Source: Escherichia phage HK6
DNA length: 64,000 bases
Strand: one strand, 5' to 3'
Sequence record: PP724615.1
Position 1 is the first letter of the stretch. Every line of letters begins with the position of its first letter. Both the position numbers and the translations under genes were made by a program. Below are positions 39,307-58,230 of the stretch, one piece after another. Under the pieces are notes generated by a model, which searched no databases, had not been told where the DNA came from, and saw only the letters and a program-made list of their open reading frames with translations.

Positions 39307-39338
39307 AAAAAAAAAAAAAAAAGGAGCCAAACGGCTCC
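39307..39338 (-). terminator. strong rho-independent terminator after the tail-fibre gene
   Basis: On minus strand: GGAGCC-GTTT-GGCTCC hairpin followed by a 16-nt T run. Confidence 0.75.
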
Positions 39339-47388: not shown

Positions 47389-47999
47389 AGACTTTCCCTC
47401 AAGGAAAGTGAAATACCAGAGTAAGTACCATTGTTATTTAATGTAGAACCAAAAGAATCAGCATTCATTAGCTTAGTTCTAAATAGGATACCATTAAAAA
47501 CTGGTTTTTCACTACCCGTAGTAGTAATAAATAGGTCAGGGTATAAGGATAAGTTCCATACATTTCCTGAGCTAGTAAAATTTGTTATTTTATAGACTTT
47601 TGGGTGGTTGGATAATTTAAATAGATCTCCAGCTTTTGGTAGTCCTGTCAAGGTTCCATTAGTATTTAGTATAATCTGAGAACCTTTCTGTCCTGCTGGT
47701 ATAGTAACACTTTTAGTATCACCACGTACTCTAAATGCTTCATACTGAGGTAGAAGTACTTCTAGGTAATCTCCAGTTCTTTTATATTCTAAAATTTTAG
47801 AATCTAGGAACGCATATTCATCTGGGAAAAGTTCCGGGTATGAGATATTAATTCCCCAGTATTGAGCAGATATTTTAACCTCTTTGACTTTACCATTAGG
47901 TAATTCATCACGAATCATAGGGTCATTATCTACTACGTTGACGCTTTCAAAACCTAACCCTGGGTACTCTGGGTTCGTGTATGGATCTGGTAGTCTCAT
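47385..47999 (-). CDS. distal tail protein (Dit, pb9-like)
   Basis: 204 aa directly downstream of tape-measure gene; own promoter 48027-48055 and strong RBS. Confidence 0.5.
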   Translation of the reverse strand: MRLPDPYTNPEYPGLGFESVNVVDNDPMIRDELPNGKVKEVKISAQYWGINISYPELFPDEYAFLDSKILEYKRTGDYLEVLLPQYEAFRVRGDTKSVTIPAGQKGSQIILNTNGTLTGLPKAGDLFKLSNHPKVYKITNFTSSGNVWNLSLYPDLFITTTGSEKPVFNGILFRTKLMNADSFGSTLNNNGTYSGISLSLRESL

Positions 48000-48026
48000 A
48001 GTTAATTTCTCCTCTTTAATAACAAT

Positions 48027-48055
48027 ATTATAATAGTATTGGAAAATTTTATCAA
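48027..48055 (-). promoter_or_regulatory. sigma70-type promoter for Dit-like gene
   Basis: Minus strand TTGATA, 17 bp, TATAAT, then AAAGAGGAG RBS. Confidence 0.5.
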
Positions 48056-48081
48056 GAAATTTTTATTTTTCCATAAAGAAA

Positions 48082-48102
48082 AGGAGGACATAAAGTCCTC
48101 CT
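48082..48102 (-). terminator. hairpin terminator after tape-measure gene
   Basis: AGGAGGAC-ATAAA-GTCCTCCT hairpin followed on minus strand by TTTTCTTTATGGAAAAATAAAAA. Confidence 0.55.
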
Positions 48103-48108
48103 CCAATA

Positions 48109-51100
48109 TTACATATTACCAAGAGATTTAAGGGTGGATCCATTCTCATTAAGAGCCAGTTCCACGGCATCTCTTAAAGCAGTGCTGTTATTCGATGCAA
48201 AATCTCTAAAGCTAGCAGCATCCATTGTGCTAATATTCAGAATGATTGGTCTTCCAGAGGTAGTCTTTGATCCATCGGAAAGCTGATCATTAGGTGTGGC
48301 TTTCATAGGAACCATAGGAGTTACTACTTCGGTACCATGCTCACCCATTTGATAGCTAACTCCAGGATACATCATACCACCTTCAGCACGCGGAACAAAT
48401 GAGTTAGCATTACCAACACCTTTATCACCACGTAAGTAGGATAATTCTCCTGAACTAGCCTGCATAGATACATCAACGTTCTTCTGTCGCTCACCTAAAG
48501 TTAGGTACTGAGTAGTATCTGCTCCAGAATCTGCAATAGAAGACATACCAGATGCAGAAGATGCTTGAGCAAGAGCTAAGGCACCTGCCAAACCTGCCGC
48601 CACCATCAAAGGAATAGAGAACGGGTATGGTACAGCTGTTGCCGCTTGCATTACTGCTACTGCAGTTTGGATGATAATCTGCTTCTTAGCTGCGTCTTGT
48701 TGAATCTTCAGCTTTTCAGCTTCCAACTTCTTCAACTTAGCTTTAGATGCTTCTGATTTACCATCACGTTTCTGCTCTGCTGCAATAGCTTGATCAATGG
48801 CACTAACCTGCTGGCTAGTACTATATTGAATCATAGAGGCTACAGTCTGCATACCGGAAGCAATCATAGACGTAGTATCTAGAGACCCCTGAGAGAACTG
48901 AATCATAGCATTAGTTAAATTACCCATGCTTTGAGCTACAGCAGTAGCTTCGGAATTTAACTCAGATAGTTTAGAAATTGCTTGGTCATAGGAAGACATC
49001 CTATTCTGCATATCAGCAAAATCTTTATCCTCTCCAGATAGCCCAGTTGTAGGAGTATACGTAGCTCCTACGGAAGAACCTACCTGTTGCTGCATCTGAC
49101 TTTCTCTCTGCTTCCTAAGTTGCTCTAAAGCAGCTGCAGTTTTATAAATCTCATTGCGATACTTAAGCTCTTCTTCAGTATTGCCCTTAGACAGCTCCAG
49201 CTGTTGCTGCAGAATGGATAACCTTTCAGTGAGAATCTGAGACTGGCCAGTAACATTTCTCTGCGTTTGGCTAACCTCTAAGGCATCCATGAGAGCTGAC
49301 ACATGAGTAGCGGTAGCCTGTTTCTCTGCTTCCCATAGTTCTCTACTTATTTGTGCTTGAGCACGTCTAGACTGTTCAGCCTCTTTCTGTTTGTCCGCTT
49401 GTTTTGTATACCATTCGTACTTCTCTCTCTCTATAGTTAGTTCTAGTTTTAGCTGAGCTAGTCTATATTGAGTAGTAGTCATAGTACGGTCATTCAGAAG
49501 AGCTATCTCACGATCTACACCAAGAATTTTATCTGTGTAATCCTTGACCTTCTTCTGGGCTTCCATACCCTGATTGGTAAGTTTAAGTTTCTCCAGCTGA
49601 ATTTTTTCAATTTCTTTTTCAACAGCTTTATTCCCCTGGTTTGTTTGAAGAACGCGGCGTAAAGCAGCTTCTTGCTCTTCTAACTGTTGTAATTCTAAAC
49701 GCCTACCGGCTTCCTGTGCCTTTTCTTTATCCTTAGTTTGATTGTATACATCAGCTATCTTCTGTTGAACTGCTAACTGATTTTTAGTTTCATTACCAGT
49801 TAGTTTAACATACTCAGATAGAGCCTGAGACGCAGTTTTCATTTCAGACAGAGTGTTATACCCCAGGTTAAGGTTTTTAACATACTCATCTGCACTTTTA
49901 CCAGTACCTAGAGATAGAGATTCTATGTTTTTTATAGCATCTGCTAAAGTAGCACTAGTCTTAGCAGCAGTATCTGTATTCTGAGCAACGTTCTGTATAT
50001 CATTAGCTAAGTCACTAGCAGTTTTCTTAGTCTGATTATATGCTTTTTGTTGTTCAGTTAGTCCTTTTAATACAGTAGAGTTAAAATCGTATACAGCATC
50101 AGGATCAGTAGTATCTCTCTGTAGATTAATCTGTTTCTGAAACTCTGGATTAGCCTTTGCAGCAGCAGCCCCAGCAGCTTGATACGCTGATTTCCAAGCA
50201 GTAAGATTCTCTGTAGAATCAGTAACTTCTTTATCCAAGCGTGCTACTTGTAGTCCCATAGCGGCGGTTTCTGCTACAAATTGTTTATTAGCTTCCGAAG
50301 CACCTGCTGCTGCAAGACCAACAGGAATACCTTCACCAACTTGACGTATAGCTAATTTTGTATAGAAATCTGCTTGTTCCATTCGTTTATCGAACTCAGA
50401 TTTTAGCTTATTACGCTTATCAAGAGATTCCTTATACATATCTAGAGCTTTATTATAGCCCTCTTCAGAAGCGGCCAAACTTAAAGCAACAGCACCAACG
50501 TTAGTAGGATCTATCTGTCTATTAGTTTTTTCTTGAGCTCTAGCTGCTTCAGCAGATACAGAAGCCTGAGAAGTATAAAATACTGTGTTGATAGCATCAA
50601 TTACTGGCCCTAGGTATTTAGCAGCAGCTTGTTGTATTGTTCTTAGTGCAGCATCTGCGTTAGCAGCAAATTGCTCCCACGGAGTAGCACGTAAAACTTC
50701 ATCTAAGTAACCAAAACGTTTAGTAGATTCTGCTATAACAGCATTGGCATACGCTTGCTGTTTCTGGAAGGTAGTAAGGCTATTAATATTATATGTTATA
50801 CCTGTGTTTGCAGCATTTAACTGTTTAACGTAATCAGCATAAGCATCGTTAAGACGAATAGTAACACCAAGTTCATCCAGAAGTTCGATTTCTTGTTTAG
50901 ATACACCCTTAATTACACGGTTAAGTGCATCAGTCATATCAACGCCAAGAACAGCAGCAGCACGACGAGCTACTAAACCAAATTTATTAAGTTGTTCGGC
51001 ATCAAATCCATAAGCAGATGCTGAAGATGCCTGTCTCATTGCTTCTTCAAAAGAGATTGCATAGCCAGCTGCCTCTTGTAGTGATCTAGCAAGGGACTGA

Positions 51101-51789
51101 ACAGGAGTACCTGTCTGAGTACCTACTATAACACCAAATTTTTCTAGACGATTTAACTGATCACCTAGTTTAAGTTGTTCGAATGCAGATTGCAAAACGA
51201 AGATGTTGGAAGCAATAGCAGCGTATAACAGTGGTAAACCACCACCTACCTTAGCCATTGCCGCAAAATCACGAGTTGCACCACGTGCTGAACCAGAAGT
51301 ATTACCAATGGCTCTAGAAGCTCTACCAGCGGCACCAGCAGTATCATTAAAACCTCTAGCTGTACCGCCTAAAACTCTATTGGTATCATACAATCTATCT
51401 TGAACTTTTTCTGTTGCAGCTGCAACATCATTACCCATTGCTTTAACAGATCTAGAAACTCCATCGAATCCAATCTCTAGTTTATCTGTTACTTCAATAA
51501 GTTGGATAGCCAGGTAATCTAGCTTATCACCAATACCATCAATGGATTTAGTGATACCAGCCATACCCCTACTAGCTTGCATTTTAGTAAGACTTTTTGC
51601 TGCCCTATCCGCTGCCCTCTCAATGGAGTAAAGGGTTTTGGGCATTTTACCTAACTGCTCATTTGTCAGTTCGGAAGCAGCAGCAGCGTTTTCCAACGCA
51701 TCAGATACGTTTTCAATAGACTTTGCAGTACGAGTTGCCCCCTTCTGCTTAACGTCTATTAGTAATTCTCGTATTAGCTTATCAGTCAT
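48109..51789 (-). CDS. tail tape measure protein (pb2-like)
   Basis: 1226 aa, long Ala/Gln-rich coiled coils, predicted TM segment VAVMQAATAVPYPFSIPLMVAAGLAGALALA, C-terminal peptidase-like region. Confidence 0.85.
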   Translation of the reverse strand: MTDKLIRELLIDVKQKGATRTAKSIENVSDALENAAAASELTNEQLGKMPKTLYSIERAADRAAKSLTKMQASRGMAGITKSIDGIGDKLDYLAIQLIEVTDKLEIGFDGVSRSVKAMGNDVAAATEKVQDRLYDTNRVLGGTARGFNDTAGAAGRASRAIGNTSGSARGATRDFAAMAKVGGGLPLLYAAIASNIFVLQSAFEQLKLGDQLNRLEKFGVIVGTQTGTPVQSLARSLQEAAGYAISFEEAMRQASSASAYGFDAEQLNKFGLVARRAAAVLGVDMTDALNRVIKGVSKQEIELLDELGVTIRLNDAYADYVKQLNAANTGITYNINSLTTFQKQQAYANAVIAESTKRFGYLDEVLRATPWEQFAANADAALRTIQQAAAKYLGPVIDAINTVFYTSQASVSAEAARAQEKTNRQIDPTNVGAVALSLAASEEGYNKALDMYKESLDKRNKLKSEFDKRMEQADFYTKLAIRQVGEGIPVGLAAAGASEANKQFVAETAAMGLQVARLDKEVTDSTENLTAWKSAYQAAGAAAAKANPEFQKQINLQRDTTDPDAVYDFNSTVLKGLTEQQKAYNQTKKTASDLANDIQNVAQNTDTAAKTSATLADAIKNIESLSLGTGKSADEYVKNLNLGYNTLSEMKTASQALSEYVKLTGNETKNQLAVQQKIADVYNQTKDKEKAQEAGRRLELQQLEEQEAALRRVLQTNQGNKAVEKEIEKIQLEKLKLTNQGMEAQKKVKDYTDKILGVDREIALLNDRTMTTTQYRLAQLKLELTIEREKYEWYTKQADKQKEAEQSRRAQAQISRELWEAEKQATATHVSALMDALEVSQTQRNVTGQSQILTERLSILQQQLELSKGNTEEELKYRNEIYKTAAALEQLRKQRESQMQQQVGSSVGATYTPTTGLSGEDKDFADMQNRMSSYDQAISKLSELNSEATAVAQSMGNLTNAMIQFSQGSLDTTSMIASGMQTVASMIQYSTSQQVSAIDQAIAAEQKRDGKSEASKAKLKKLEAEKLKIQQDAAKKQIIIQTAVAVMQAATAVPYPFSIPLMVAAGLAGALALAQASSASGMSSIADSGADTTQYLTLGERQKNVDVSMQASSGELSYLRGDKGVGNANSFVPRAEGGMMYPGVSYQMGEHGTEVVTPMVPMKATPNDQLSDGSKTTSGRPIILNISTMDAASFRDFASNNSTALRDAVELALNENGSTLKSLGNM

Positions 51790-51812
51790 GTTTTATTTTT
51801 CCCAATAAAAAA

Positions 51813-51837
51813 GGCTCTGGGCAAATCACCCAGAGCC
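51813..51837 (-). terminator. hairpin terminator/attenuator upstream of tape-measure gene
   Basis: GGCTCTGGG-TGATTTG-CCCAGAGCC followed on minus strand by TTTTTTATTGGGAAAAATAAAAC then ATG. Confidence 0.55.
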
Positions 51838-51872
51838 AAGCCTCATCGTGGAACGCCCATTGGAGGAAACTT

Positions 51873-52241
51873 TTACCGTGCTCGAGATTTAGCATGTGGC
51901 TTAACGTTAGGAATCCTTCCGTTTTGCGGTTTATGCTTCTCAGCACGTTTACGTGCAGCATCTACAGCTTTAGCATCAAATATATTGATAATGTGTAGAA
52001 CAAATTCTTTTTCTATAGGATCAGTAATCCCATAAATATCAAATAAAACACCTAATGCAGCCTTATCCTTACCTATAAAAATAGGAAAGTCACCCGGTAT
52101 GAAACAGTCAATTAGACTGTTATAAATATTCATACTAATAGCTACAATAGGTGGAAAATCCTCAAGTTCAACGGGCATAGCCTTAGGATCAGGCTCTATA
52201 CCCATTGACTCACAAAGTATTAAATATTGTTGTTTGGTCAT
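51873..52241 (-). CDS. putative tail assembly chaperone
   Basis: 122-aa ORF between tail tube and tape-measure genes (usual chaperone position). Confidence 0.4.
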   Translation of the reverse strand: MTKQQYLILCESMGIEPDPKAMPVELEDFPPIVAISMNIYNSLIDCFIPGDFPIFIGKDKAALGVLFDIYGITDPIEKEFVLHIINIFDAKAVDAARKRAEKHKPQNGRIPNVKPHAKSRAR

Positions 52242-52302
52242 TTTAGATGCTGAGCTTTTAATACATTTATCTGCAAAATCAGCAACAGCATCTAGAAGTT
52301 CT

Positions 52303-52707
52303 TTACGCTTTTGCGCTACGAAAAGTGTCTAAGTGGAACACTGTCTGGTTGATCCAAGAATCAAACGCAGCAGAGTTCTGCATAAGCATTACAGCATTAT
52401 CGCGACTAAAAGGAACTTCAGTCTCAGGATCAGCATCTGTTTCAATCAGCATCAGTTTTTCAACGTCACCTACAGTCAAACCAGTCCAACCTTTAATAGC
52501 AGCATCAACGAAGGCTTCAATGAACTTATCATCATCCTGTACCTGAATCAAAGTACCATTAACCCACTCATCACGCTTAGCAGAAGTGATAACTCGTTTA
52601 GAAGTAGCACGAGACATATAATTAAGCTCTAGCTTAAAATTCGGCATACCTGGGTATGAGAGAGTGACAGTACGAGTTTCTAGAGTAATATCTTTTAAGT
52701 TAATCAT
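52303..52707 (-). CDS. putative tail assembly chaperone
   Basis: 134-aa acidic ORF in the usual chaperone position. Confidence 0.4.
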   Translation of the reverse strand: MINLKDITLETRTVTLSYPGMPNFKLELNYMSRATSKRVITSAKRDEWVNGTLIQVQDDDKFIEAFVDAAIKGWTGLTVGDVEKLMLIETDADPETEVPFSRDNAVMLMQNSAAFDSWINQTVFHLDTFRSAKA

Positions 52708-53603
52708 TATTTTCTTTCTCCAAAGAAGTTTATTTCTACAGGATCTGAATCAGCAGTAGGTATTACATCATACTCTACCTGATACAAATCTGAGAAGTTT
52801 AGGCGTTTTGAAATACGTGCTAAAGGGAATGTTATAGAAACATATTTATTCTTAATAATTAGTGGAGTTCTTGTTTCAGGGTCTAGATTCAAGAACTTAT
52901 CTCCTACCAATCTCTTAACGTAATAGAAAGCTAGCGTTGCGGAAGCATTCATTTCATTGACATAAGCTCGTTTATTAGTATAAACTTTATTTATATCAAA
53001 TATACTTCTATCTTCTCTCCAAGAACATTGTTGCTGGAAGGACATAGATGCTGAAACTAATGCAGGCAATGGTGCGCTATTAGTATACACAGCTGGAGGA
53101 CTATATGGAAGTACTTCACCTTGTGTAATTGTATATCCATCGCGGAAAGTAGATACTTCAGAGAATTTTCCAGACTCAATACCAACATTTAGGATCGGTA
53201 TACTCTTATCTAGAGAAAAATCAACTGTTGATACATAACAGTTTTCGAAATAAATACAGCTATTATTAGGATTAATAATATACATATTGAACATAATAGG
53301 TTCAATATTGGGAGTATTTCTTGGCAAAAATAAAGAATTTCCCTCACGCGTGAATCCCATCCAATCAAAGAAATTAGACTCAATAAGCGTAGTACTGAAA
53401 TTTATTGCCAATGAAATAGATGAAGGATCTTGAGCATTAATAATAGAGTCTGCATAGTTTGTACGATTATGGATAGTACGTCTAAGAGTTTTAAACTCTT
53501 GAAAAGACGTACTAGCATCATAGTTAGAGAGGGCATCGAAATGATACCCTCTACCATCGTACTCAATAACTATTTTAGACTCTCGCATGAGAGAATAAAA
53601 CAT
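52707..53603 (-). CDS. tail protein (unknown role)
   Basis: 298-aa ORF in tail module. Confidence 0.4.
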   Translation of the reverse strand: MFYSLMRESKIVIEYDGRGYHFDALSNYDASTSFQEFKTLRRTIHNRTNYADSIINAQDPSSISLAINFSTTLIESNFFDWMGFTREGNSLFLPRNTPNIEPIMFNMYIINPNNSCIYFENCYVSTVDFSLDKSIPILNVGIESGKFSEVSTFRDGYTITQGEVLPYSPPAVYTNSAPLPALVSASMSFQQQCSWREDRSIFDINKVYTNKRAYVNEMNASATLAFYYVKRLVGDKFLNLDPETRTPLIIKNKYVSITFPLARISKRLNFSDLYQVEYDVIPTADSDPVEINFFGERK

Positions 53604-53607
53604 TTAA

Positions 53608-54999
53608 TTAACCACCTGTTACAGTAATCTGTTTAGTGCCTTTAACTCCAGAACCATCTTTAGCAGTAGCTTCTACAGTTACTGCACCAGTTTTACTAGC
53701 ATGTGCTGTTAACAGTCCGGTTGCACTGATAGTAGCTGCATCACCGGCAGTGATAGCCCAAGTAACTTCCTTATTATTTGCGGAAGAAGGAGTAACTTCA
53801 ACACTCATCTGAAGAGTAGCCGAGTTGTTTACTGTAGTAGCATCACCGGCAGATTTAACAGTAATTGCGGTTACAGCATCAGTAGCACCATTACCATTAA
53901 CAATCAAGTTATTAATAGTTGTTTTGGTATATTTACTAGAGAAGCCTAAGTAACCTTCATCACCAGCATCCAGATCAGATGGAATAGCCTTAAACTCTAC
54001 TGAAGTACCAAGTACATCATCAGTTTCAATAGTAGGAATATTAACGTGGGCTTGTTTAGCTACTAGAATAGCTGCAGGACGTTCATCATCATACTCACCA
54101 CCAAGTACTAGAGCGATTTCGAAGCGGTTAACTACCTTCAGAGTTTTGATAAGATCTTTATACAGTTCCATAGAACCAAGAGATTTATCATTCAGATAAG
54201 CAGTTAATGAACCAGTTAATTCAAAAGCACCAGTAAAGGAACCAATTGGAATAGTGACACGGGACATTACATTAGGTGTTAAATAAGTAATGTTGTTGTT
54301 AATAGTAAAAGTACCACCGGTAATAGGTATGTCATAAGACTTATTGGTATCCATGTCCTTGATCTTCAAGATCGTTAGTTTGTTCTTAATATAAGAACCC
54401 TGGATAGTCATATAAGTTTCATCATCAATACCTAGTTGATCTGGATCAAATGGGGCGGAATCCAGAGGAATAAGCTGATTACCATTACCAGACCAAGTTA
54501 CACGGCCAATATCTTCAATATCAACGTTAACTTCTGCCTGATTAATCTGACAGGAATCGATATAACTCCATGCTTTATCAGTCAGAATATAAATATGTAA
54601 CATTGCTAACTCGTGATAAGAGTTATCTTTGAAGTTAACCATGAAGTTAGCTTCGTTATTGTGTGCCCCTGTATTACCTTCTAGATTAATAGCTTTACCA
54701 CTAGAAAGTGCATGCCATAACATATAGTCAGGAACAATTTGTTTGTTGGTAGTTTTATCTTTATACGGTAGGATGTAAGTAGAAAAACTCCACTCAGCTG
54801 CGTTTAAAGAGTCGTTAAAACGTTTAGAACCACGAGTTGGACGCGGACCAGCTTCATTAACAGTAATATCTGTTGAGTTACTGTCCTGACCCCAAGAAAT
54901 ATCATCCTGAACTAGAATCTCTTGCGTGTTGGTCTTATTATGACCAGTCTTAACCGTAGACACGAAGATTCGAGTATTACGTAATAGTTGTAAAGACAT
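53608..54999 (-). CDS. major tail tube protein (pb6-like) with C-terminal Ig-like domain
   Basis: 463 aa; C-terminal ~80 aa Thr/Ala/Val-rich Big_2-like segment ending ITVTGG. Confidence 0.65.
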   Translation of the reverse strand: MSLQLLRNTRIFVSTVKTGHNKTNTQEILVQDDISWGQDSNSTDITVNEAGPRPTRGSKRFNDSLNAAEWSFSTYILPYKDKTTNKQIVPDYMLWHALSSGKAINLEGNTGAHNNEANFMVNFKDNSYHELAMLHIYILTDKAWSYIDSCQINQAEVNVDIEDIGRVTWSGNGNQLIPLDSAPFDPDQLGIDDETYMTIQGSYIKNKLTILKIKDMDTNKSYDIPITGGTFTINNNITYLTPNVMSRVTIPIGSFTGAFELTGSLTAYLNDKSLGSMELYKDLIKTLKVVNRFEIALVLGGEYDDERPAAILVAKQAHVNIPTIETDDVLGTSVEFKAIPSDLDAGDEGYLGFSSKYTKTTINNLIVNGNGATDAVTAITVKSAGDATTVNNSATLQMSVEVTPSSANNKEVTWAITAGDAATISATGLLTAHASKTGAVTVEATAKDGSGVKGTKQITVTGG

Positions 55000-55025
55000 T
55001 TAATTATTTTCTCCTAATCTGTAAC

Positions 55026-55511
55026 TTATCTGCGAAGTGACCTACGTGGAGGCTGATACCTCACTGTTACATTTATTTCTGCTAAACCATATGGGGCCAG
55101 TAGACCCTCATCTGTACTAACTGATGTAATGATCATATCAGTTGCCTCACATGGGAAGGTCGATCCATTAGGTTTACTAACAGTATATTCTAAATTTCCA
55201 CCTGTGTCAATAACGGTTTTTATATCCGCTACGAGTTTTTCAAGTTGCTCTTGAATGTCTGTTTTCTCTTTATCGTACACCAGGATTGGAAGTTCTAAAA
55301 ACATCCACTGTTGGCCTGAAGGAAGATACTGCCCAGTTTCAGTTCCGATATGAACTGCCACATAAGGAAACTCTCGTATTTCCTCAAATTTATAAGTTTG
55401 ACGAGAAACGTTTCCGTATAGATTATTAAAATATTCGTCAGGTTGAGAACCATCCATTTGTTTAGAGATTCGGTCAACCATAGCTTGTGCAATACTTGTT
55501 CTATGATCCAT
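55026..55511 (-). CDS. tail completion protein (putative)
   Basis: 161-aa ORF between head and tail tube genes. Confidence 0.35.
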   Translation of the reverse strand: MDHRTSIAQAMVDRISKQMDGSQPDEYFNNLYGNVSRQTYKFEEIREFPYVAVHIGTETGQYLPSGQQWMFLELPILVYDKEKTDIQEQLEKLVADIKTVIDTGGNLEYTVSKPNGSTFPCEATDMIITSVSTDEGLLAPYGLAEINVTVRYQPPRRSLRR

Positions 55512-55514
55512 TTA

Positions 55515-56282
55515 TTAGGTTCCTTGATTAACCTTAATTTTATATCTGGAGTGAATCAGGTCTCTTGCAGCTTTTGCTATAGCCTCACCAATAAGTTTTT
55601 GTGGGTTTCTAGCGCCAGGATAAGGTCGTAGAGATAATCTTCTGTATGTAGATACTGCCGGATTGAACACAGAATATGGACGAGTCATATAATTATATGT
55701 TACGTTCAATTCAGGAGAGCCTTTACTAGCTTCAGAATCACGAAGCATAACATCTTTAATTTTTAAAGAGTTTGCAAAGCGACCCGTTCTAAACTTTAAG
55801 GGTGCTCCCGCTTTTTTCATATCCTTTATTAAGTATTCTTTAGCAACTATCTCTAATATAATCTTCATATTGCTGTTAGACACAAAACGTCCAGAAGCAC
55901 CTGTTACTGCACCAGAGTATCCATCCTCAACATCACTAGGATCACCAAAGTTTACCTGCACTCTACCAGTAGAACGTTTTTTACCTACTGAGGATTTTTT
56001 ACCAGCAGTTGCTTGTATTAGATTCTCCAGAGCACCTAAATCTCCAGAAAGATCTAAACTAGAGGATACAGCTTTTAGTATAGAGGCTGTTCTAACATCA
56101 AGAAGATCTTGGGATACAGGTTTTGAAAACTTAAAAGATACTTGAGCAACAGTACCATCTCTGGTAGGATCTTTTAACCCTGTTTCAACAGAGTATACAA
56201 CAGTATTCTTATTATTTTCAGATCGGCCTGCAGTATCTAGCTGCTCTTTAATAATTTGTTTAGCTAGATCGGAAAGAGACAT
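55515..56282 (-). CDS. tail terminator / neck protein (putative)
   Basis: 255-aa ORF, position in head-tail joining block. Confidence 0.35.
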   Translation of the reverse strand: MSLSDLAKQIIKEQLDTAGRSENNKNTVVYSVETGLKDPTRDGTVAQVSFKFSKPVSQDLLDVRTASILKAVSSSLDLSGDLGALENLIQATAGKKSSVGKKRSTGRVQVNFGDPSDVEDGYSGAVTGASGRFVSNSNMKIILEIVAKEYLIKDMKKAGAPLKFRTGRFANSLKIKDVMLRDSEASKGSPELNVTYNYMTRPYSVFNPAVSTYRRLSLRPYPGARNPQKLIGEAIAKAARDLIHSRYKIKVNQGT

Positions 56283-56794
56283 TATACTCTCCTATATACT
56301 TCAATAATAGTACGAATATGCTCTGGAATACCAGACTTAGTGCTATTGAAGGTTACTGTTTCACCACCAATTGTTTTAGCTTGGCGATAATCTTGTTTGT
56401 GCCAATGATCTACTAGCATACATGCTGCAAGTTTGAGATCTTCAGGTATTGGATTGAATCCACCTTGTGTATATGCTACGTCCATATAACCTTCTGGAGG
56501 ATTAAATTTGAGAAGGATAATACCGTCAGAGTATAGCTTATACTGCTCTGGGTCAATCTCATTATCGTTAATCGTCACTTTAGTTACGGAGGTAGCAGAT
56601 GGTGAGCTCAGAAAATATTTCCTACGTGTAGGTTTTGTATTGATTAACTGGTCTACCGCATCAGCATCATCCATGCCTAGAAGGCTCGTGATCAGCGCAT
56701 TGGCAGCAGTAATCATCATTTCTACACCAGATTCTAATTCAGGTCGTTTTAAACCACCATATAATCTATAATCTTCGGCTGTGATGATTTGCAT
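56282..56794 (-). CDS. head completion / adaptor protein (putative)
   Basis: 170-aa ORF right after capsid gene terminator. Confidence 0.35.
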   Translation of the reverse strand: MQIITAEDYRLYGGLKRPELESGVEMMITAANALITSLLGMDDADAVDQLINTKPTRRKYFLSSPSATSVTKVTINDNEIDPEQYKLYSDGIILLKFNPPEGYMDVAYTQGGFNPIPEDLKLAACMLVDHWHKQDYRQAKTIGGETVTFNSTKSGIPEHIRTIIEVYRRV

Positions 56795-56813
56795 TTATTT
56801 TTCCCAATAAAAA

Positions 56814-56833
56814 AGGAGAGCCGAAGCTCTCCT
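56814..56833 (-). terminator. hairpin terminator after major capsid gene
   Basis: AGGAGAGC-TTCG-GCTCTCCT followed on minus strand by TTTTTTATTGGGAAAAATAA then ATG. Confidence 0.6.
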
Positions 56834-56853
56834 TATCGGCTGAAAAGCCTGTA

Positions 56854-58230
56854 TTAAGATGCAGCGTAAGCACCAGATACAACGCCATTATTAAAGTAAC
56901 GTTGCAGGTTAACACGCTGAGTAACGTAGTACGCATCACGCTGTTTACCAGCTTGGCGCTCACGTTCAACAGTAACAGCACGCTGACGCGGCATTACGAA
57001 GTTATCTTTATAAACAATAACTGCGAACTCTGCAGAGTTAGCTTTAGCCGGGAAGAACTCAGAAACTACAACCGGCAAACCGTAAATACGACCAACCTGA
57101 CCTTGCAGTTTAACAGCATCATTACCAACCTGGGCAACATCCTGCCATTCTTCATCTTCCAGCAAATCGTAATAAGCATCCATAGATACGATCAGTACCA
57201 GTTTGCTCAGTTTCAGACCATGACGGCCCAGTTTACGACGCAGTTTAGAGATAGTTTTAGCAGTTACCAGAACAGAACCATCAGCTTTAGCTTCAGTAAT
57301 AACTTTAGCACTATCGCCTTCAGCCAGTTTCAGCAGACCCTTAGGCTTACCAGTACCGTCACCCGTCATAAACGCTTCTTCGATAGAAACAGCGTGTGCT
57401 TCAATCAGACGCTTACGCAGCAGAGGTAGCAGGGAGAAGATTGCATCTTCTTCAGTTTCATCAGTAATGAAGGACTTAGCAGCCAGTTTATAGGTTTTGA
57501 ACTGAATTTCAGTCAGAGCACCTTTAACTTCGTCACCAGTAGTAGTGTCAGTACCATATGCACTAGCATCTACCCAAGTAGCTTTACCAGCATCTGGTTC
57601 AACCAACATAGTAAGAATTTTGCTAGACATTGGCAGTTCTTCAAACAGAGCACCAACTACTAGTTCTTTCTGCAGGTCACGAATAATACGCTGGGAGAAA
57701 ATAGTTTCATAGCTTTCACTAGAAACTTCTACTGAAGAGGACTGGTTTACAGCTTTCAGGTGTCTCTGGCCATGTTCGGTATCAAATACACCTTTTTCCA
57801 TCACATAAGACAGAAGAACCAGTTTTTCAACTTCATCTTCAAAGTTTTCCTGAGTACCGTACAGTGCTTTAGCTACGCTATCACCAACGAAGGAACGACC
57901 TTCACGAGCTGCTAGCAGAGATTTAATTTCATCCTGGAGACCAACAATAGTTTCCTGCTGTTTTTCTACAGTCTGTGCAAACAGTTCTGCGCTCTTTTTA
58001 GATTTTTCATCCAGGGACTTAACCAGTTCCAGAGCTTGTTCCAGTTTCTGACGATCTTCGCCAACTGCTTTAGAAACCAGATCATTCATACGAGCCAGTT
58101 CTTTTTCTTCCTGCTCTTTACGCATACGTTCAGCTTCAGCAGCTTTCTGAGCAGCGGTCAGACCTTCCAGAGATTTAGCCAGATCACCCAGACCAAGTTC
58201 TTCTTTCAGCTTATTAATATCAATAGTCAT
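56854..58230 (-). CDS. major capsid protein (HK97-like, with N-terminal coiled-coil delta/scaffold region)
   Basis: 458 aa; Glu/Lys-rich coiled coil in first ~150 aa; directly downstream of prohead protease. Confidence 0.75.
   Translation of the reverse strand: MTIDINKLKEELGLGDLAKSLEGLTAAQKAAEAERMRKEQEEKELARMNDLVSKAVGEDRQKLEQALELVKSLDEKSKKSAELFAQTVEKQQETIVGLQDEIKSLLAAREGRSFVGDSVAKALYGTQENFEDEVEKLVLLSYVMEKGVFDTEHGQRHLKAVNQSSSVEVSSESYETIFSQRIIRDLQKELVVGALFEELPMSSKILTMLVEPDAGKATWVDASAYGTDTTTGDEVKGALTEIQFKTYKLAAKSFITDETEEDAIFSLLPLLRKRLIEAHAVSIEEAFMTGDGTGKPKGLLKLAEGDSAKVITEAKADGSVLVTAKTISKLRRKLGRHGLKLSKLVLIVSMDAYYDLLEDEEWQDVAQVGNDAVKLQGQVGRIYGLPVVVSEFFPAKANSAEFAVIVYKDNFVMPRQRAVTVERERQAGKQRDAYYVTQRVNLQRYFNNGVVSGAYAAS

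Follow-up and report, generated by a model that had tools for sequence, protein, structure and literature searches.

The late structural genes of Escherichia phage HK6 raise the question of why nearly the same sequence, set behind a GC-rich hairpin, runs up to the start codons of two different genes, and what such an arrangement could contribute to late expression. The 64,000 nt of record PP724615.1 analysed here (the window) belong to a T5-like phage (Tequintavirus); a sequence search with the 9-kb region around the elements returned 551 phage records, of which nearly all are T5-like (Demerecviridae), and the region shares 98% identity with Salmonella phage SP01. The late structural genes lie on the minus strand: the major capsid protein gene (58230-56854, stop codon TAA at 56856-56854), the head completion gene (56794-56282), which is the first after the capsid gene, the tail completion and then the tail terminator genes, the tail tube gene (54999-53608), a minor tail protein gene, two tail-assembly-chaperone ORFs (52707-51873, stop codon TAA at 51875-51873), the gene of the pb2-like tape measure protein (51789-48109) and the Dit gene (47999-47385). 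The chaperone ORF pair resembles a G/GT-type programmed +1 frameshift (52329-52306, slip site UUU CGU at 52323-52318, minus strand). The frame of ORF B is open across the end of ORF A, the annotated ATG of ORF B at 52241 has no Shine-Dalgarno (SD) sequence (-0.1 kcal/mol), and 10 genomes from 8 genera all share the hexamer TTTCG(T/A) where the two ORFs overlap.

The first-pass annotation had listed three minus-strand sites of this kind, and all three lie where it had placed them. The near-identity that it had noted between the sequences 3′ of the hairpins before the tape-measure and head-completion ATGs proves to be exact over 21 nt: the 21-mer TTTTTTATTGGGAAAAATAAA occupies 51812-51792 and 56814-56794 (minus strand), each time directly 3′ of a GC hairpin. 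Allowing up to 3 mismatches reveals no further site in the 64 kb; the chance expectation from shuffled sequences is 0.01, and two or more matches occurred in none of 100 shuffles. The tape-measure ATG (51789) lies 2 nt beyond the 21-mer, and the A of the head-completion ATG (56794) is its final A. In IMG/VR, no T5-like genome carries more than two exact copies, which are always those of the same two junctions, with about 5 kb between them, so that a dispersed repeat or mobile element could be rejected. A scan of positions 47800-57200 against Rfam 15, with E values up to 10, yielded no family at its gathering score; the best hits overlapping the elements reach 23-28 bits, compared with gathering scores of 45-50. 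Folding of the hairpins with their tails, relative to shuffled controls, gives z scores of -3.4 to -5.1. In a read-through RNA, the 21-mer can itself fold into a weak A-U hairpin with GGGAAA in the loop; this is not a feature of the family, the versions in Vibrio phages having no A-run.

The capsid and head-completion genes are separated by 59 nt. The hairpin in this spacer, denoted T1 (AAGGAGAGC-UUCG-GCUCUCCUU, 56813-56834, minus strand; 9 bp, -14.5 kcal/mol, z = -3.7 for hairpin and tail), begins 19 nt past the capsid stop codon and is followed by the U-tract UUUUUUAUU (56806-56814), which would serve both as the terminator tail and as the U-rich 5′ part of the next ribosome-binding region. 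The translation start of the head-completion gene (56792-56805) consists of a weak SD, GGG(A), at 56805-56802, an A-rich spacer and the AUG at 56794-56792. A small hairpin, GGCU-UUUC-AGCC (56838-56849), located between the capsid stop and T1, is part of the minimum free energy structure, and its GGC...GCC is retained with different loops in Sugarland, Slocum and PR1. The spacer between the chaperone and tape-measure genes (83 nt) has the same anatomy: the hairpin T2 (GGCUCUGGGU-GAUUU-GCCCAGAGCC, 51813-51837, minus strand; 10 bp by RNAfold and 11 pairs in the hairpin scan, -19.1 kcal/mol, z = -5.1 for hairpin and tail), the identical U-tract as terminator tail (51804-51812), and a translation start (51787-51803) with a weak SD, GGG(A), at 51803-51800, an A-rich spacer and the AUG at 51789-51787. 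The close resemblance of the two copies follows from the constraints on them, since almost all of their bases belong to the terminator tail, the SD, the spacer or the start codon, or to more than one of these.

Both T1 and T2 combine the features expected of Rho-independent terminators, namely a GC-rich stem-loop of at least 5 bp with a loop of 3-8 nt, a U-tract no more than 2 nt from the stem, a position downstream of a co-directional stop codon, and a structure that is kept despite sequence change. Terminators have been marked at the same junctions by independent annotators in T5, VAH1, Sugarland, Lindwurm, Slocum and PR1; in the records of T5 and its relatives (AY587007, MK373792, NC_042093, OK143207, MN095770, NC_041913) the positions are the same, the hairpins are the same or homologous, and the U-tracts are the same. 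There is no difference in kind between these annotated terminators and the HK6 elements, and the records are silent on the shared 21-nt tail and on its family-wide conservation. The elements are signals of an ordinary, already annotated kind, unusual only in the strength of their conservation.

The translation signals are weak. The first-pass annotation had found no canonical SD at either start, which holds insofar as neither is strong; each start is nevertheless preceded by a weak SD, UGGGAA (-4.2 kcal/mol against the anti-SD), at a spacing of 6 nt for the head-completion gene and 9 nt for the tape-measure gene, that is, a purine-rich complement of the 16S rRNA 3′ end within the usual 4-10 nt upstream of the start. 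With -4.2 kcal/mol, these two starts are among the weakest of the late module, most genes of which reach -5.4 to -11.6 kcal/mol. Vibrio phages have, at the orthologous position of the T1 junction, the canonical GGAGG (phi3) or GGAG (pVp-1), or else GGGG (Thalassa and Brizo); at the T2 junction, relatives have GGA, GGUG or, in Vibrio phages such as Thalassa, GGAG. The GGG is annotated as a 3-nt ribosome-binding site (RBS) in the GenBank records of Sugarland, Lindwurm, Slocum and Stitch. Judging from these comparisons, the part 3′ of the U-run appears to be an ordinary, weak ribosome-binding site for de novo initiation. Translation enhancers that depend on protein S1 and combine A/U-rich sequence with a weak SD were reportedly described by Boni in 1991 and by Komarova in 2005. 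As in UUUUUUAUUGGGAAAAAUAAAUG, these enhancers carry a U-rich tract ahead of a weak SD, together with a spacer that is A-rich and unstructured; the HK6 start regions are candidates for this class, with the difference that their U-tract doubles as a terminator tail.

The elements are probably Rho-independent terminators joined to a minimal, weak translation start within about 45 nt, with the downstream genes expressed through read-through. No promoter fits between either hairpin and the next start codon, and therefore read-through is the only route by which these genes could be expressed. Under this scheme, T1 and T2 would end most transcripts after an abundant product, the capsid protein in the case of T1 and the tail tube protein and tail chaperones in the case of T2. 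The minority of transcripts reading through T1 would supply the head-completion, tail-completion and tail-terminator genes, and the minority reading through T2 the tape-measure gene. The start region would reuse the U-tract as its U-rich 5′ part, followed by GGG(A), the unstructured A-rich spacer and the AUG, and the weak SD would lower the output of the downstream genes further. Termination efficiency, the extent of read-through and the use of the weak SDs at T1 and T2 are predicted here from sequence features. By such features both terminators would be strong although the genes behind them are essential, and antitermination by the T5-modified polymerase may help read-through. Literature searches for transcript-end mapping in T5-like phages found none.

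A proposal made when the elements were first described, that terminator-coupled reinitiation sets the stoichiometry between abundant structural proteins and low-copy ones, survives in part. The terminator and the stoichiometric logic are supported: the capsid protein, before T1, and the tail tube protein and chaperones, before T2, are high-copy products, and the genes directly after the two elements, for head completion and tape measure, encode low-copy ones. Translational reinitiation is not supported, with 59 and 83 nt and a stable hairpin separating the upstream stop codons from the starts. A virion contains hundreds of capsid subunits as against about a dozen head-completion subunits, and few tape-measure chains. 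The tail tube is built of 40 pb6 trimers (PMC5717097). The terminators are located exactly where protein copy number falls 40- to 60-fold, and, because the downstream low-copy genes could be expressed by read-through only, it is plausible that partial termination contributes to virion stoichiometry; the anatomy and conservation of the elements are observed, and from them we infer both partial termination and its role in setting the stoichiometry. A close parallel is T7, where T-phi, after gene 10, is a partial terminator behind the major capsid gene and essential downstream genes are expressed by read-through. Like T1, T-phi is an intrinsic terminator right after the gene of the most abundant virion protein; unlike the situation in HK6, T7 employs its own RNA polymerase and the next ribosome-binding site is not fused to the U-tract, and read-through of T1 and T2 is presumed.

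The same anatomy bears on the possibility, also raised in the first-pass annotation, that the motif is a late promoter. In this reading, extended to a leaderless-mRNA start, the T5-modified RNA polymerase would initiate at the motif itself, and in the T5 record AY587007 the T1 region is indeed annotated as a ‘putative late promoter T5P40’. The same record (1555-1682) begins the head-completion gene (ORF137) at a downstream GTG, so that T5P40 covers the terminator together with the initial 40 nt of the real gene; in other records and in the HK6 window the start is the ATG abutting the motif, and the span of T5P40 is explained by the miscalled start. The 21-mer overlaps no sigma70 -35/-10 hexamer pair. 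With only 0-2 nt between the motif and the ATG, a transcript start and a leader could not be accommodated, and the distance of the motif to the ATG (0, 2 or another value) and its sequence vary in relatives, which is incompatible with a fixed start. In addition, T5 late promoters are strong and of the sigma70 type (PMC7472727). The promoter or leaderless reading is thus largely refuted, and we assign it next to no probability.

The junctions were compared in 12 genomes of 8 genera, reaching phages of Proteus, Providencia, Serratia and Vibrio; the head-completion proteins of the distant relatives are 29-51% identical to that of HK6. All lineages have a hairpin and a U-run at all three junctions, and the T1 U-tract is kept in all 12 genomes, so that the expectation of conservation among T5-like relatives was upheld for the position and structure of the hairpins. 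Stems were compared by folding each sequence separately, given that MAFFT-based RNAalifold misaligned the divergent stems and under-counted pairs. The 12 genomes contain 5 distinct stems at T1 and 7 at T2, with free energies of -14.5 to -21 kcal/mol. The T1 hairpin is identical in sequence in Tequinta-, Epseptima-, Sugarland-, Novosib- and Priunavirus; the stem of Slocum is a compensatory variant, and three distinct stems occupy the same place in Vibrio phages. The T2 stems all fold at the same position, with three compensatory pairs in Sugarland. Compensatory pairs occur in Sugarland, Slocum and the Vibrio phages, an example being GGCUCUGGG/CCCAGAGCC versus GGCCUAGGG/CCCUAGGCC.

The sequence itself is also conserved to an unexpected degree. 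The capsid element is 100% identical over 43-45 nt between HK6 and Providencia phage PR1, as against 29% identity of the downstream protein and 64-71% of the flanking coding DNA, and it is 93% identical in RP7, where the flanking coding DNA is at 64-70%. The whole chaperone/tape-measure spacer is 77-86% identical in four more distant comparisons, with flanks at 62-67%. Identity begins and ends sharply at the edges of the elements, which therefore points to purifying selection rather than recent transfer. Such conservation, with about 45 nt near-invariant while the proteins diverge to about 30% identity, seems to be above what a generic terminator and RBS would need and presents a modest puzzle; the overlapping constraints (stem, U-tract, SD, spacer and start codon) account for much of it, perhaps not for all. 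Islands of identity between diverged genomes, located exactly at module boundaries, could also be maintained as linkers, that is, as targets of homologous recombination for the exchange of head, tail-shaft and tail-tip modules; however, 43 nt is short for efficient homologous exchange, and functional constraints already account for the position of the elements, which makes this explanation very improbable.

A different kind of evidence comes from T5 itself, in which a mobile gene is inserted between the T2 U-run and the pb2 ATG in place of GGGAAAAATAAAAC, with the hairpin and the U-run retained. The inserted gene (AY587007, 6578-7375) encodes a CapR domain and a treble-clef zinc finger and is likely to be a mobile endonuclease-like gene. 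Replacement of the 3′ half at T2 in T5 therefore implies that this half has no irreplaceable sequence-specific role at that junction. The gap between the T2 U-run and the tape-measure gene is an insertion point in the Vibrio subfamily as well, where it holds a conserved gene of about 250 aa (L008, 15548-16303; L235, 15513-16274) for which a search found no Pfam match.

The terminator-RBS junction is, moreover, encountered outside the T5 family. A UUCG hairpin followed by TTTTTATTGG was matched in more than 120 unrelated viral contigs, and, in 51 of the 92 unique contigs of that scan, an ATG begins 8-12 nt after the GG; in most cases the GG is part of a GGAG or GGAGG. Of 121 UUCG terminators taken as an unselected control, about 10% have an SD and an ATG directly after the hairpin and tail, and ATTGG follows the T-run in none of the 121. 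Accordingly, the GG is the SD and ATTGG carries no signal of its own, and a terminator U-tract that runs into an SD, a spacer and an AUG is a recurrent compact design of phage genomes. The unrelated contigs (L099, L102, L104 and L173, and the leaders of L094 and L096) are like HK6 in the hairpin, the U-run, AUUGG with further purines, a spacing of about 7-11 nt and the AUG; they differ in that most have a canonical GGAG or GGAGG. The exact 21-mer precedes the tape-measure gene in an unrelated 42.6-kb contig (L051/L094), and a variant does so in its 49%-identical relative L096. A special tape-measure signal was considered and rejected, control scans having shown that terminator-SD-AUG junctions are common, and the best reading of these two leaders is that this design has arisen anew. 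They differ from the HK6 elements in that the upstream gene is divergent and the hairpin lies in a 5′ leader, not after a co-directional gene. The exact 21-mer in the Firmicutes-like contig L092, where it is followed by AGGAGG, is probably a chance match. In L094 (about 1020-1200) and L096 (about 1010-1190), members of an unrelated siphophage group with a divergent gene before the tape-measure gene, a conserved hairpin-like block (GTGA-GATCGCA..TCACCGA) in the leader is followed by a terminator-like hairpin that runs into the start site, an arrangement that looks like an attenuator.

These comparisons also bear on whether the segment 3′ of the hairpin is read by something other than RNA polymerase and the ribosome. 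RNase E or another endonuclease could cut the read-through RNA in this U/A-rich segment, leaving the upstream capsid or tail-tube mRNA protected by its 3′ hairpin and the downstream mRNA short-lived, an effect that could act together with termination. A stable hairpin followed by an A/U-rich single strand is the general context favoured by RNase E, the stretch 3′ of T1 and T2 is fully A/U-rich and single-stranded, and the additional constraint would help account for the conservation. However, the anatomy is fully covered by a terminator and an RBS, and T5 tolerates a swapped 3′ half at T2; on the sequence alone, processing, likewise raised in the first-pass annotation, seems unlikely.

One conserved feature falls outside the terminator-plus-RBS explanation altogether. 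Directly upstream of T2 lies a non-coding block of 33 nt, GUUUCCUCCAAUGGGCGUUCCACGAUGAGGCUU (51838-51870, minus strand; core UCCUCCAAUGGGCGUUCCACGA), which had not been described in the first-pass annotation. The block hardly varies within the family, occurs in a single copy in the window, includes an anti-SD-like CCUCC, and has the pattern UCCUC..GG..UUCCACG invariant in 9 genomes including Vibrio phages. A coding function was rejected: the frame of the block relative to the chaperone ORF differs among phages, with indels and in-frame stops. No covariation among the aligned relatives and no Rfam match were found for the block, and a metagenome scan with the block pattern returned only the Tequintavirus and Sugarlandvirus copies and chance matches in GC-rich genomes. 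Pairing of CCUCCAAU in the block with AUUGGG at the tape-measure start was also dismissed; it comprises 6 bp in HK6 and, on hand inspection, is lost in Slocum, RP7 and the Vibrio phages. The role of this block is a second modest puzzle.

The block enters into the possibility that the elements are sequence-specific sites for a phage or host factor (an antitermination factor, a translational repressor, or Hfq binding the U-tail and the A-rich tract) that times or tunes the synthesis of the head-completion and tape-measure proteins, in which case the block would belong to an operator or act as the seed of a small RNA originating in the chaperone 3′ UTR. The conservation of the elements is higher than in the flanking genes, with sharp boundaries; five genera share one T1 stem, although stems normally drift; and the block (UCCUC..GGGCRUUCCACGAG) does not vary and shows no covariation, which suggests that the sequence, not the structure, is read. 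On the other hand, neither a candidate factor nor an Rfam family was identified, the Vibrio members vary the tail sequence freely while keeping the architecture, T5 is without the 3′ half at T2, and the same architecture is common in unrelated phages. Such a factor is thus improbable. Equally little credence is due to the composite proposal of a family-wide, sequence-specific control node, in which a factor would read the T1 hairpin and tail and the block with the T2 hairpin, or the chaperone 3′ UTR would give rise to a small RNA made of the block and T2 and having a CCUCC seed, gating, late in infection, either read-through or the translation of the head-completion and tape-measure genes.

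The terminator-RBS reading extends only in part to the third site, in the 109-nt spacer between the tape-measure and Dit genes, which had been described as a more divergent copy (48104-48057). The hairpin, the U-run and an A-rich tract are indeed shared, but a promoter follows, and this is not the same composite. The hairpin T3 (GGAGGAC-UUUAU-GUCCUCC with UUUUCUUUAUGG, 48071-48104, minus strand; 7-10 bp, -12.1 kcal/mol) has the U-rich tract UUUUCUUUAU, and a hairpin and U-run are found at this junction in all lineages, with differing stems. Next comes an A/T-rich, UP-element-like tract, AAAAAUAAAAAUUU, which is the A-rich half of the claimed third copy, and then a consensus sigma70 promoter (tract and promoter, 48027-48070; promoter TTGATA-17-TATAAT, 48055-48027, minus strand, 11 of 12 hexamer matches), which is predicted to drive Dit, pb3 and the downstream genes. 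After the promoter there is AGAGGAGA, with a strong SD, and then the Dit ATG (47999). The promoter corresponds to the putative late promoter T5P39 of the T5 annotation and is found family-wide; the A-rich tract GGAAAAATAAAAA is not kept outside Tequintavirus and Epseptimavirus. The third site is thus a terminator followed by a promoter, and its likeness to T1 and T2 comes down to the terminator tail and the A/T-rich UP-like tract.

The tail-terminator coding sequence contains, about 180 nt upstream of the tail-tube ATG (54999), a second sigma70 promoter close to the consensus, TTGACA-17-TATACT (55182-55210, minus strand; 11 of 12 hexamer matches), with ATAAAAACC ahead of it. This promoter is kept in T5, Sugarland, Stitch, Slocum, RP7, PR1 and Thalassa, is weaker in phi3, and is absent from the annotation of the T5 record AY587007. 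Between T1 and T2, this promoter would restart strong transcription for the tail tube, and the promoter at 48055-48027 would do so for the baseplate genes after T3. The result for annotation is that the motif represents neither a new promoter class nor a repeat family, being a terminator fused to a weak ribosome site, and the late region can be laid out as a testable map: a promoter, the portal through capsid genes and T1; the embedded promoter, the tail tube and chaperone genes and T2; the tape-measure gene and T3; and a promoter followed by the baseplate genes. Elsewhere in the window, two more strong terminators have a start codon close behind, at 39322 (minus strand) and 21919 (plus strand), one with a run of 16 T and the other with the tail TTTTTGTGTATTTGGGATATG.
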